A stretch of 64,000 bases of DNA, taken from NCBI RefSeq assembly GCF_041248615.1, contig NZ_CP158426.1; one strand, 5' to 3'. Source of the stretch: Escherichia coli. Lineage in GTDB: Bacteria; Pseudomonadota; Gammaproteobacteria; Enterobacterales; Enterobacteriaceae. Below, one piece after another: positions 6,001 through 9,000 of the stretch; position 1 is the first letter of the stretch, and each line of letters opens with the position of its first letter. A program made the position numbers.

Positions 6001-9000
6001 ATATACCCGCAGGGTTTGAACCAGACATTTATTTGTTGAAGTCTAAGATCCAAATGGAAGCATTTATATCCCTCAGATATTATGCGTTGACGGGTTGATA
6101 AAGATACTTTTAGAGGGTTAATAAATGGAGAACGTATAATAAATCTCTTAAACAAACTATAACCTGTACTAATGAAAAAAATGGGAATAGATAAGTTAAT
6201 AGCCTATTCTAAAAATGGTAAAGTGGTTTTACTTCCAAAATAATGGAGTTTAGTATGAAAATCGAAGCTAATTCCCTTACTCATCCCTATGACTACAACG
6301 CCTCACTGAACAATTATTTACATTATTTTGAGAATTTCTCTCGTAATGACTGGAATAAAGATTCATGTGGAGGATATTTTACTTTTAGAGATGATGACAG
6401 AGAGTGTGTTTTGTTTTTTGTGAATTATGGTGATAATTTTTCATTGCGCTATGATTGTACACAAAGTTCTGATGGAATAGTGTCATGCTGGTATAGTAAC
6501 CATGAAGATGATAAAATGAATATCATCGTCGATGCTGATACAGAACAATTTATCCCTTTAGGTTCTTGCTTACCTCCTGATATTACTTTATCAGTAATAA
6601 AAGATTTTTTCAAAAATCCTTTAGAGAAATCAAAAAAAGTAAAATGGATGAATGCAGATGACATTGACTGGTCATCTGTGTATTAAAGTTGGATTGGATA
6701 ATTATCTGTTTCAAAAATCATTAAATTTAGAACCTATCTGTTCAACAGAGCTGCCTTGAACAGCAGGTTCTTTTATGATGTCCAGGAGCGAATATGCCTG
6801 TGATGTCTGGCACTCAGCATCTGACTGACCTGGACTACTGATCCTACTCACACAGGGAGCTAGACCTGGAAGCAACCTACTGTAAGCAGTGCAGTAGCAG
6901 CCCACCTCACATCAGTCCTTGCAAGGTGTGGGCCTTTGTGATCTTGCTCTGTATTGCTGAGATCCTCAGGAAGGACTCGAAATTTAATCAGGAAGGCCGT
7001 TGCTAAAAATCAAAAAATAAATTCAAGAGCAATTTCTAAAACTTTTGAATCTACTGTATCGGATGAGGTTTTCACTCCTTTCCAAAAGGTGAGTTTTCAA
7101 GCATTCAAGTTTCTGTTATGACCAAAACTTCACCATTTAACACTAATCCGAGTATTATGTTACCATGAAGAAAAAAGATATTAGATTTGCAATATCCATT
7201 AACTCCAACTCAAGTAAGATAGAATTAATGGAAAAATTAAAAACATAATCCCAGGGCTTATTGAAATAACTCCCAGTGCATTAAGAGAAGAAAAAACATG
7301 GTAGTTATTGAAGATAATGATCTTTATGACCCTATAAAAGCAGAGGGAGTTGATGGATGGATGTATTATAAATTCATATTATCCATATTCCCATTAAAGG
7401 GAGTAGACACAACATTAGAATATCAACGGGAATTATCTTTTCTTTTCTTAAAGAAATTAAAAGATGCGGGTCTGTTAGGTGAACTTATATGCGAGGATGA
7501 TTTTCATGACTGATGACCTCTACATATATCCTCAGTTCGTGGCTGGTATTACATGATCTGACAGGGAAAGATCGTAGCGAAATCAAAAAAGACGTGGATT
7601 TCCCGGAAGCCGGTGAAGACACAGCGCTCTGCGACAAGGAGACTAAACCGCCGAGGATAACCCAGGGCAGCAGCAACGTTTTTATCAACAATCAGCCCGC
7701 CGCGCGCAAGGGGGACAAACTGGAGTGCAGTGCGGCGATCGTGGGAGGTTCGCCGGACGTCTTTATTGGGGGTGAGCAGGTCACCTATCTGGATATCCAG
7801 CCGGAGTTCCCGCCGTGGCAGAGAATGATCCTGGGGGGAATAACGATAGCCAGCTATCTTCTGCCGCCAGCGCAGGGAAAGATCACGTAACGCTGCTTTT
7901 TTGTACTAAATAATTCGCACTAAATGTTCAATAATTGAGATATTCCTTATTACCTAAATACAGTTCCACCAAGATTACCTAAACCCAAATGAGGTAAAAG
8001 ATAGTGGGTATGAATAAAAATGAAATCCATTTCCCTATAGGATATGGTTGGTTGAATGAAAAAAAAATTATTGGCACCAGTGAATTTAGCCAATTAGAAC
8101 CATGGTTTTATCTAGATGAGAACAGGTGTTTTTTTGCGAATAAAAAATGGCCAAATGTCATAGGTGAACAATTATTCGCTTTTGCTAAACGTCAAGATAA
8201 TGATGAATTGGCTTGTTTCAAAATTAATGAATCTGGAGTCTGTGAGGGTGTTTATTTAATTAATGGGTGGACTCCTAACGGGTTTGATATTATACAATTT
8301 TACCCTGATTTTTGGGAATGGGTACATTTGGTTATACAAGATGTCTCGGAGTGGATTGATAATAAAGGATAATTTGAAACAAAAGTAAAAAACCGCCTTC
8401 ATTGAAGGTAACGTGGAGTGGTGGGCGGAGCAGCCTGCCCGCAGACACAGACTACCCGGACCCGCGCGGGGAGCGGGACGCGGAAGCCGACCCCGGCCTG
8501 CTGTATGCAGGACAGTGGCAGGATGCGGAATCCGGACTGTGCTATAACCGGTTCCGGTATTACGAGCCGGAAACCGGGATGTACCTGGTGAGTGATCCCC
8601 TGGGGTTGCTGGGGGGTGAGCAGACTTACCGGTATGTGCCTAATCCTAGTGGGTATGTTGATCCTCTGGGATTAGCAACGTGTCCTATACTCAGACAGTG
8701 GGCGCTGACTAACCTTGAAGCCAGTCGGGCAGCAAGGGCTGCATCTAATTTTGGTAAGCCTCTGGTCCAGCGAAATAAAACGATTGGCGATAAAGTAAGG
8801 GATATGATTGCCAAAGAGAGGGGAACCACTCTAATTGAACAAAATTATAGAGTGACAGGAGGATTAAAGCGTATTGACGTTGTTGATGGAGTAACGGGTA
8901 TAGAATCTAAAGTCGGTCGAACAGGGTTAACAACCCGAGTACGGCAAGAGGTAGCGCGGGATATTAAGATTTTGAGAAGTGAGCAACTTGATCAAATTGA

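Follow-up and report, generated by a model that had tools for sequence, protein, structure and literature searches.

An unannotated stretch of about 260 bp lies within the AT-rich array of orphan toxin and immunity genes in a vgrG-rhs locus of E. coli that is linked to a T6SS. In all likelihood it is a non-functional fossil, in which the decayed 3′ end of an rhs core is followed by the tip of an insertion sequence (ISAs1/H-rpt) and then by the last third of an Rhs toxin gene of nucleotidyltransferase type, with the immunity gene coming after. On the alignments described below, the stretch resolves into three abutting pieces, the rhs core end (6738–6900), the IS end (6901–6951) and the toxin-gene end (6952–7168). 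All positions refer to the window, i.e., the whole 64,000-nt stretch of DNA that was analysed. In RefSeq genomes 100% identical to it the locus reads vgrG, DcrB-like gene, rhs, orphan fragments, ISAs1, nfrBA, and in CFSAN064035 the open reading frame at 6243–6686 comes straight after a full-length Rhs CDS. The features of the region are as follows.

6652–6759, plus strand: 35-aa frame from the ORF listing
6711–6905, minus strand: 64-aa ORF with a GTG start, from the ORF listing; a chance frame across the fossil
6729–6777, plus strand: hairpin GAACCTATCTGTTCAA-(10 nt loop)-TTGAACAGCAGGTTC followed by TTTTAT, 43 nt past the stop of the immunity-like ORF 6243–6686
6738–6900, plus strand: fossil of an rhs core 3′ end, about 59–62% identical to intact cores and colinear with the main rhs gene at 4492–4660
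6901–6951, plus strand: solo right end of an ISAs1-family (H-rpt/ISEc1-like) insertion sequence, ending exactly at the IS terminus
6952–7168, plus strand: 3′-terminal 217 nt of an Rhs C-terminal toxin gene of nucleotidyltransferase type, 97% identical to the intact GF43 gene
6954–7121, plus strand: 55-aa frame with a TTG start, from the ORF listing
7165–7513, plus strand: cognate immunity gene, frameshifted; an intact 116-aa ORF occupies the equivalent place in other strains

The initial annotation had described a block of different composition at 6690–6990, between the AT-rich ORFs 6243–6686 and 7298–7513, and had quoted from it the string ctggactactgatcctactcacacagggagctagacctggaagcaacc, which corresponds to 6830–6877. 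The ORF listing and the windowed GC profile confirm the contrast (GC 0.44–0.515 in 200-nt windows over 6700–6999 vs. 0.29–0.33 on either side; about 50% over 6738–6996, which holds no credible ORF, vs. about 31% in the flanks). Thus the block is real, but its edges have to be shifted: the anomalous part is 6738–6951, and the first 45 nt or so of the next fragment, moderately GC-rich, prolong the anomaly to about 6996. The GC content is raised because it was inherited from an rhs core of 67% GC and an IS end of 60% GC that are only half eroded; in 6738–6900 it is 0.50, compared with 0.67 in the homologous stretch of intact rhs. It also holds that, apart from short plus-strand frames, the only ORF is the weak 64-aa frame on the minus strand. 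This frame found no match in Pfam or NCBIfam at E ≤ 10 and is annotated in none of the 167 genomes that carry the block. When the six-frame translation of 6760–6960, with frames concatenated, was compared with 5.8 billion protein clusters, nothing was obtained at E ≤ 1. At the nucleotide level the search did find relatives, namely rhs core ends, ISEc1-type right ends and the GF43 toxin gene, and so the proposal that the block is the relic of a foreign gene stands in its first half only: by alignments and DNA profiles it is a gene relic, yet one built of an rhs core end of the locus's own family, an ISAs1/H-rpt end and a truncated Rhs toxin gene rather than of unrelated DNA.

The rhs parentage of 6738–6900 is supported by local alignment with transition-tolerant scoring: against the main rhs gene (4492–4660) and the rhs gene of GF43 the score was 68–72.5, whereas shuffled queries reached 36 ± 2.9 with a maximum of 46.5. 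An nhmmer profile built from 12 rhs core ends likewise matched 6788–6900 on the plus strand (hmm positions 144–261, E = 1e-7), while ordinary blastn gave colinear seeds only at 6738–6778 and 6796–6818. A copy of the fossil with its CpGs restored matched 2493 E. coli genomes at 68–74% identity, and all these matches lie in RHS CDSs. The equivalent protein segment is '..LFNSEGKTVWRPGQTSLWGLALSLPADTGYPDPRGELD..LLYAGQWQ', so that the fossil ends ahead of the DPxGL cleavage motif. Its left 40 nt (6738–6775) align poorly to rhs, and the hairpin located there shows local rearrangement. In the well-aligned part (6776–6900) 18 of 43 codons are kept, and there are four in-frame stops and several frameshifting indels. 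The homology to rhs stops at ...QWQ, exactly where the IS end begins, and there is no ORF that would run through PxxxxDPxGL into a toxin domain. Since stops and frameshifts interrupt it and its homology ends before DPxGL, the piece is, as judged from these alignments, a pseudogene fragment and not a functional orphan.

Toxin modules that have been displaced or orphaned normally begin with the 3′ end of an rhs core, and displacement of the C-terminal toxin tip reportedly leaves vestigial or orphan core-end fragments in enterobacterial Rhs loci, as is said in the Rhs literature of the Hill laboratory. Like such fragments, the fossil sits in an Rhs locus after the main rhs gene and an immunity gene, is homologous to the final ~170 nt of the core, colinearly and in the same orientation, and is followed by toxin/immunity DNA. 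Unlike them, it ends before DPxGL, is fused to an IS end instead of running into a toxin tip and has been stripped of CpG. The remaining rhs fragments of the array are 90–98% identical to the main gene and the toxin fragment is 97% identical to its relative, but the fossil only about 60%, and by this measure of sequence divergence it appears to predate the rest of the locus by far. Searches of E. coli genomes, plasmids, metagenomes and one genome for each GTDB species turned up nothing closer to the fossil or to the parent IS, and no intermediate form, so the parentage rests on ~60% (rhs) and 78–83% (IS) identity over short lengths. The plasmid collection, whether searched with the fossil as it stands or with its CpG-restored copy, yielded just ISEc1-type ends and ordinary rhs cores, and a Y/R-degenerate, relic-specific pattern matched six metagenomic sequences, all from the same E. 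coli locus (96.5–100% identity), with no less-decayed intermediates among them.

The IS remnant at 6901–6951 comprises the last 12 transposase codons ('HLTSVLARCGPL*'), which were compared with ISEc1's own 12-residue C-terminus, the stop and the terminal inverted repeat ATCTTGCTCTG (6941–6951). Against the right terminus of the window's intact ISEc1 (12486–12531), defined by comparison of three ISEc1 copies, 36 of 46 positions are identical and the last base is the same; the 11-nt inverted repeat matches at 10 of 11 positions. The remnant is 77–83% identical to 25 ISEc1-type right ends from other Escherichia, Citrobacter and Pseudocitrobacter and to an IS of an Enterobacter plasmid, the alignments always finishing at 6951 within a few bases, and an nhmmer profile of 19 IS right ends matches 6901–6951 with E = 1.6e-7. 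A degenerate right-end pattern, applied to one genome per GTDB species, retrieved 25 loci, all of ISEc1 type and none closer to the relic.

H-rpt/ISEc1 (ISAs1 family, 1291 bp) is an insertion sequence classically tied to Rhs elements, and the remnant shares with it the inverted repeat, the final codons with their stop and the exact terminus. It differs in that only about 50 nt are left, lacking a left end and a transposase. No DDE transposase (PF01609 with PF13808) was detected upstream of the IS end in any frame by Pfam, NCBIfam or a custom profile of 130 family members. The inverted-repeat search of 6650–7050 found no left repeat, so the remnant is neither a complete element nor a MITE; a candidate MITE with its left repeat near 6782 was not supported by this search, and the nearest copies of CAGGGAAAGAT, at 7562 and 7873, lie downstream in the wrong arrangement. 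Since the remnant is 78–83% identical to every ISEc1-type end found, it would derive from a different or a much older copy. The 5′-truncated ISEc1 right ends of two other Escherichia loci (L015, L022), in contrast, are nearly identical to ISEc1. The intact ISEc1 of the window occupies 11242–12531, some 4.3 kb further on.

The toxin fragment begins on the base right after the IS terminus (6951). From there on the sequence is 97% identical to the 3′ end of an intact gene for an 'RHS repeat-associated core domain-containing protein' of E. coli GF43 (L002, 4001–4218), and this identity to the GF43 toxin-immunity pair spans 650 nt. The GF43 toxin tip matches Pfam NTP_transf_2 (28.7 bits, cut-off 21). 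In the window only the last 72 codons are present, with two 1-nt indels; the truncation, upstream of 'AESSGRTRNLIRK...', has taken away the catalytic GS...DxD motif. The cognate immunity gene (7165–7513) is broken: single nucleotides have been deleted at two points in A-runs, so that the 71-aa ORF 7298–7513 remains, while the 116-aa ORF is intact in GF43 (L002, 4215–4565) and O121:H19 (L004, 5476–5826).

The block is carried by 167 of 5426 complete E. coli genomes (~3%) and is unannotated in all 167. In about 30 of the carriers it is cut at 6865; at the two such loci inspected (L003, L031) IS3 lies at this position, and the DNA up to a 5′-truncated ISEc1 has been deleted. Allelic variation in the fossil, four sites in 214 nt, is similar to that of its neighbours. 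The block is dispensable, because about 30 of 167 genomes end their match at 6865 and the fossil varies as its neighbours do. Only the hairpin at 6729–6771 stands out structurally: of its two arms, the right one aligns colinearly with the rhs core and the left one is a near-perfect inverted copy of the right, and the RNA fold of 6700–6790 has −22.9 kcal/mol (z = −3.4, with 0 of 200 shuffles as good). The terminator scanner made no call on it because the 10-nt loop exceeds the 8-nt limit. With its T-run, the hairpin may be a putative intrinsic terminator of the upstream immunity gene.

Could the block instead encode an RNA? The initial annotation had raised an untranslated RNA, in its fuller form an sRNA or a cis element controlling the orphan immunity genes, and such a reading would suit a block that has no ORF, retains 98–100% identity in 137 genomes, carries a strong hairpin with a T-run at its 5′ edge and has promoter-like hexamers downstream (7129–7166). 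The identity of the block is, however, not above that of its flanks. An Rfam 15 scan of 5500–8500 at permissive thresholds gave no match at E ≤ 1, and the fold energy of 6770–6990 was indistinguishable from shuffles on either strand (z = −0.34 and −1.61). As about 30 of the 167 carriers stop matching at 6865, with IS3 there in both inspected loci, and the sequence is wholly accounted for as rhs and IS pseudogene, a regulatory RNA is very unlikely. Scarcely any credence is left for the first working hypothesis, according to which all of 6772–6951 would be a diverged ISAs1-family 3′ end, composed of a transposase C-terminus and the inverted repeat. The last 46–50 nt are clearly an ISEc1-type right end, and a weak 'GN..SG..H' motif spacing fitted the ISEc1 transposase by eye. 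Yet 6772–6905 scored 10–11 against ISEc1, where shuffles scored 10.8 ± 1.3; a profile of 130 ISAs1 transposases scored negative in all six frames; tblastn and the family profile, applied to a sample of 150 family representatives, returned only noise; and nothing was found in Pfam or NCBIfam. With the rhs core, these bases do give a significant, colinear alignment, which for 6738–6900 refutes the reading as ISAs1 alone. Minus-strand likenesses to an N-terminal DDE_Tnp_1_assoc motif and to an 'ED..R.R' motif were rejected as noise, since they lack Pfam support and span the IS/toxin junction.

The fossil has lost its CpG dinucleotides, containing one CpG where 12 are expected, with TG/CA in excess. 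For 6772–6951 rho(CpG) is 0.08 and rho(TG/CA) 1.66, compared with 1.16 and 1.10 for the window. The break in composition is therefore sharper than the GC profile suggests: among 1620 overlapping 180-nt windows of the 64 kb with GC ≥ 0.45, CpG observed/expected fell below 0.25 in only five, all within 6721–7020. The CpG-poor, TG/CA-rich signature recurs neither elsewhere in the 64 kb nor in some 200 kb of related loci. Of the 21 CpGs in the rhs and ISEc1 references none survives, and 14 have become TG or CA, vs. about 26% change at non-CpG G/C and at A/T positions, each class taken by itself. C-to-T changes sorted by 3′ neighbour are most frequent before G (CG 14/32, CC 11/42, CA 3/20, CT 1/21). 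The loss, an oddity for E. coli, looks like decay of the methyl-CpG type; simple neutral decay in this species would not lead one to expect a loss so complete and so specific to CpG. A eukaryote-like origin, considered for the CpG-poor, CTG/CAG-rich look, was dropped once both halves had aligned to enterobacterial rhs and ISEc1.

Compatible with the block being a decayed rhs and IS fossil, it is possible, though doubtful, that a CpG-preferring deamination or methylation acted locally, or that the DNA stayed for long in a CpG-methylating lineage before E. coli, so that its composition would record a mutational regime and not plain age. Besides the figures above, it speaks for this that the H-rpt left-end relic nearby (7868–7958) has retained its CpGs and that the adjoining toxin fragment is just 3% diverged. 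Against it, the sample is small (~210 nt), the rhs and ISEc1 references stand in for the true parent sequences, and the flanking AT-rich genes are moderately CpG-poor too (rho 0.36–0.64). About 12% transversions and several indels indicate long ordinary decay as well, and thus exclude a pure deaminase burst. We know of no CpG methylase in E. coli and of no CpG-specific one in Enterobacteriaceae. Moreover, CpG hypermutability has been reported in the absence of methylation, e.g., in fission yeast (Behringer and Hall, 2016, as cited in PMC5887664). The CG-to-TG/CA substitution pattern and dinucleotide signature are shared with vertebrate genomes and with Mycoplasma penetrans, which bears M.MpeI and whose DNA, according to work cited in PMC11282364, is CpG-depleted and TpG/CpA-enriched by deamination of 5-methylcytosine. 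In contrast to these, the signature is confined here to 210 nt of an E. coli chromosome whose overall rho(CpG) is 1.16, and the likeness is one of pattern only. The literature covered on Rhs/ISAs1 orphans and on CpG effects in E. coli mutation accumulation supplied background only. Rather improbable is the more specific proposal of a footprint of CpG-targeted mutation, left either by a long stay in a CpG-methylating, rhs/ISAs1-bearing relative of Escherichia or by a local, repeat-directed process that acted on the rhs core and IS end and spared the unique flanks. If true, either version would be a mutational regime undescribed for Enterobacteriaceae, and the local one a bacterial analogue of repeat-directed point mutation. 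The block is otherwise ordinary, and the complete erosion of CpG to TpG/CpA is its sole point of wider interest; should it prove to be common to old pseudogenes of bacteria, or should it be traced to a donor that methylates CpG, it would have implications for context-dependent mutation and for where Rhs-associated DNA comes from.

Taken as a fossil, the block is probably the vestige of toxin-tip displacement and IS-mediated deletion and has no function. An H-rpt element would have come to lie beside an old vestige of a core end, the IS would have been lost except for its right tip, and both would have decayed together by some 25–40% through transitions, transversions, indels and stops. Later, the IS terminus, still recognisable, would have been linked to a toxin/immunity module of much more recent origin, the probable cause being an adjacent deletion mediated by transposase or a one-ended event at the terminus. 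That an old IS tip is joined at its exact terminus to young DNA requires an extra assumption, either that a transposase acted in trans or that the right side was renewed afterwards by recombination. At most, the hairpin with its T-run might end transcription of the upstream immunity gene. For annotation, a compositionally odd, unannotated segment is thereby explained as a junction of three pseudogene fragments. Fossils of this kind are missed by ordinary BLAST and recovered by transition-tolerant scoring or DNA profiles. The layers of the Rhs array would run from an old displaced core and IS tip, through much younger toxin/immunity modules, to IS3 and ISEc1 rearrangements. A fresh rhs core-end fragment is present in the window at 8431–8758.

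The sequence between the AT-rich toxin and immunity genes, about 300 bp (6690-6990) which the initial annotation suggested might be a relic of a foreign gene or an untranslated RNA, consists of unannotated examples of two well-known kinds of sequence: a vestigial piece of an rhs core and a remnant of an H-rpt/ISAs1 element, joined to a truncated Rhs toxin gene. The relic reading was therefore right in kind. The deviating composition is also real: GC content (200-nt windows) is 0.44-0.515 over 6700-6999, compared with 0.29-0.33 before this stretch and 0.30 after it. It is the residue of an rhs core with 67% GC and an IS end with 60% GC, to which the toxin fragment adds its initial 45 nt, moderately rich in GC. 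As had been stated, there is no convincing ORF: the ORF list holds just a GTG-started frame of 64 aa at 6711-6905 on the minus strand and two short plus-strand frames. From left to right the region comprises:

Features of the region (window coordinates)
6243-6686: imm2, an immunity-like ORF that in CFSAN064035 lies directly after a full-length Rhs CDS
6729-6777: hairpin with T-run
6738-6900: rhs-core fossil
6901-6951: right-end remnant of an ISAs1-family element
6952-7168: 3′ fragment of a toxin gene
7165-7513: imm3, an immunity gene, frameshifted

The rhs homology stops at 6900 and the IS end begins at 6901. The stretch 6906-6951 agrees at 36 of 46 positions with the right terminus of the ISAs1-family element (H-rpt/ISEc1) of the same locus. 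The end of this 1291-1292 bp element was set by comparing three ISEc1 copies with different flanks (...ATCTTGCCCTG), and the relic (...ATCTTGCTCTG) terminates on exactly its last base, 6951. The relic inverted repeat matches that of ISEc1 at 10 of 11 positions (11 of 11 in the L034 and L036 alleles), and the C-terminal transposase motif with its stop is kept in the relic frame (HLTSVLARCGPL*, compared with the 12-residue family counterpart). A DNA profile of 19 right ends matched 6901-6951 (E = 1.6e-7 in the window), and the alignments of 25 ISEc1-type ends of other species, and of a diverged (78%) relative on an Enterobacter plasmid, extend over 6904-6951 and no further; upstream of the tip no transposase coding is detectable.

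From the 6951/6952 junction rightwards the DNA corresponds, at 97% identity, to a stretch of GF43 that covers the 3′ end of a full-length, intact gene for an 'RHS repeat-associated core domain-containing protein' and the 116-aa gene downstream of it. The GF43 toxin tip, which matches Pfam NTP_transf_2 with 28.7 bits (cut-off 21), is a nucleotidyltransferase domain; in the window only the last 72 codons of the toxin gene, past the catalytic motif and with two 1-nt indels, are left. The gene paired with this nucleotidyltransferase-type toxin, imm3, is intact in GF43 (L002 4215-4565) and O121:H19 (L004 5476-5826) and is frameshifted in this strain by two 1-nt deletions in A-runs, because of which just a 71-aa ORF (7298-7513) had been visible. 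The AT-rich toxin/immunity genes (5230-6690 and 6952-7513) are moderately CpG-poor (rho 0.36-0.64 vs 1.16 for the window).

Complete CpG erosion is the sole hook of this otherwise ordinary feature. Within 6772-6951 one CpG was observed against 12 expected and TG/CA is over-represented 1.66-fold; this is the only such place in 64 kb, and none was found in about 200 kb of related loci. This CpG loss and TG/CA excess suggested heavy decay by transitions, and the remaining 160 nt were therefore re-aligned with a transition-forgiving matrix. In this alignment 6776-6900 is a colinear, same-strand match to the rhs core 3′ end, with targets in the large rhs gene upstream (4492-4660, and its duplicate at 1532-1700), the GF43 rhs and a fresh orphan (8444-8521); scores were 68-72.5, compared with 36 ± 2.9 and at most 46.5 when the query was shuffled. 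Three checks go beyond this matrix. With 12 rhs core ends as a standard nhmmer profile, 6788-6900 was found at E = 1e-7, and colinear seeds to the core came already from ordinary blastn. A copy with the CpGs alone restored matches RHS CDSs in 2493 genomes at 68-74%, a weaker check, as it was this alignment to rhs that guided the restoration. At the protein level the homologous portion of the core is ...LFNSEGKTVWRPGQTSLWGLALSLPADTGYPDPRGELD..LLYAGQWQ, which is typically found at the head of displaced or orphan modules. Over 6776-6900, where the alignment is good, 18 of 43 codons are kept, and there are several indels and four in-frame stops, three of them from TGG to TGA or TAG.

All 21 CpGs of the rhs and ISEc1 references are lost, 14 as TG or CA; the five of the ISEc1 end all read CA or TG in the relic. 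Had CpGs mutated like other G/C sites, about half would be expected to survive. Outside CpG, about 26% of G/C and about 26% of A/T positions have changed. Sorted by 3′ neighbour, C-to-T changes number 14/32 for CG, 11/42 for CC, 3/20 for CA and 1/21 for CT. The nearby H-rpt left-end relic (7868-7958) kept its CpGs. The pattern is what deamination of 5-methyl-CpG produces, and we regard it as an oddity of about 210 nt, measured against the rhs and ISEc1 references. To our knowledge no CpG methylase occurs in Enterobacteriaceae. In Mycoplasma penetrans, a species with a CpG methylase, CpG is described as strongly under-represented (PMC11282364), and hypermutable CpGs in the absence of methylation have been reported from fission yeast (cited in PMC5887664). 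A pure deaminase burst is excluded by the transversions and indels of the fossil.

Identity to the main gene is 90-98% for the other rhs fragments of the array, and the toxin fragment is 3% away from the intact gene, whereas the fossil has diverged by about 40%, with transversions at about 12% and several indels. The fossil and the IS tip are therefore inferred to be much older than the DNA around them, or else to stem from a distant lineage. Their alleles within E. coli are only about 2% apart, so that the decay would predate their spread within the species; the fossil has 4 variable sites in 214 nt, comparable to neighbouring DNA. That the old IS terminus meets young DNA at precisely its last base points to an event mediated by a transposase and using the near-intact inverted repeat; intact ISEc1 copies in the genome could be the source of that transposase.

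Most likely the fossil has no function, in view of the carriers whose match ends at 6865 and of an allelic variation similar to that of adjacent DNA. The untranslated-RNA reading found no support, as an Rfam scan of the block gave no match at E ≤ 1 and 6770-6990 (221 nt) is not more stably folded than its dinucleotide shuffles (plus strand, z -0.34; minus strand, z -1.61). Pfam and NCBIfam gave zero family matches in any frame of the block, and its concatenated six-frame translation gave nothing at E ≤ 1 against 5.8 billion protein clusters. The single element with a possible role is the hairpin at 6729-6771 (-22.9 kcal/mol, z -3.4), followed by TTTTAT and lying 43 nt past the imm2 stop, which may terminate imm2 transcription. 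Its right arm (TTGAACAGCAGGTTC), the part that is colinear with rhs core sequence, recurs inverted and nearly unchanged as the left arm (GAACCTATCTGTTCAA); a template-switch (quasi-palindrome) mutation within the fossil may have produced this palindrome.

The window is E. coli chromosome, and 6690-7010 is 100% identical in many complete genomes, e.g., AR_0067. Of 5426 complete E. coli genomes, 167 carry it, each as a single copy and never on a plasmid, and no feature is annotated over it in any of the 167 carriers. Their annotated gene order (T6SS vgrG, a DcrB-like gene, large rhs, small hypotheticals with partial 'PAAR'/'RHS' pseudogenes, an ISAs1-family transposase, nfrB, nfrA) places the block within an orphan toxin/immunity array downstream of the Rhs toxin gene. 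In about 30 of the 167 the match ends at 6865; in the two inspected, an IS3 element is inserted at this point (L003 5176-6404; L031 about 4189-5351) and the DNA between it and a 5′-truncated ISEc1 next to nfrB is deleted. The main rhs, a pseudogene with an internal stop per RefSeq annotation, contains two copies of the core 3′ end (1440-1739 and 4400-4700, 98.7% identical) and resembles either two rhs genes combined or one gene with a displaced tip within it.

The 12-nt ISEc1/H-rpt left-end sequence CAGGGAAAGATC forms a direct repeat (7562-7573 and 7873-7884) flanking a 300-nt PAAR pseudogene fragment (7573-7872), and its second copy runs into the left-end relic of ~85 nt at 7868-7958, which shares ~81% identity with the left end of the intact IS (11237-11327); IS ends thus mark several junctions of the orphan array. 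Solo right ends of H-rpt seem to be recurrent. 5′-truncated ISEc1 right ends beginning at the same base (GTAAGATGCG...) lie in unrelated contexts in E. whittamii and Escherichia sp. MOD1-EC7003 (L015 about 2765-2840; L022 about 2085-2157), and in Pseudocitrobacter (L016 1174-1259) a partial second right end directly follows a complete one. Short contigs in MAGs of non-enterobacterial taxa (L017, L018, MAG labelled Collinsella sp.; L019, MAG labelled Ca. Scatousia) carry ISEc1 right ends nearly identical to those of E. coli, and are probably mis-binned Escherichia DNA.
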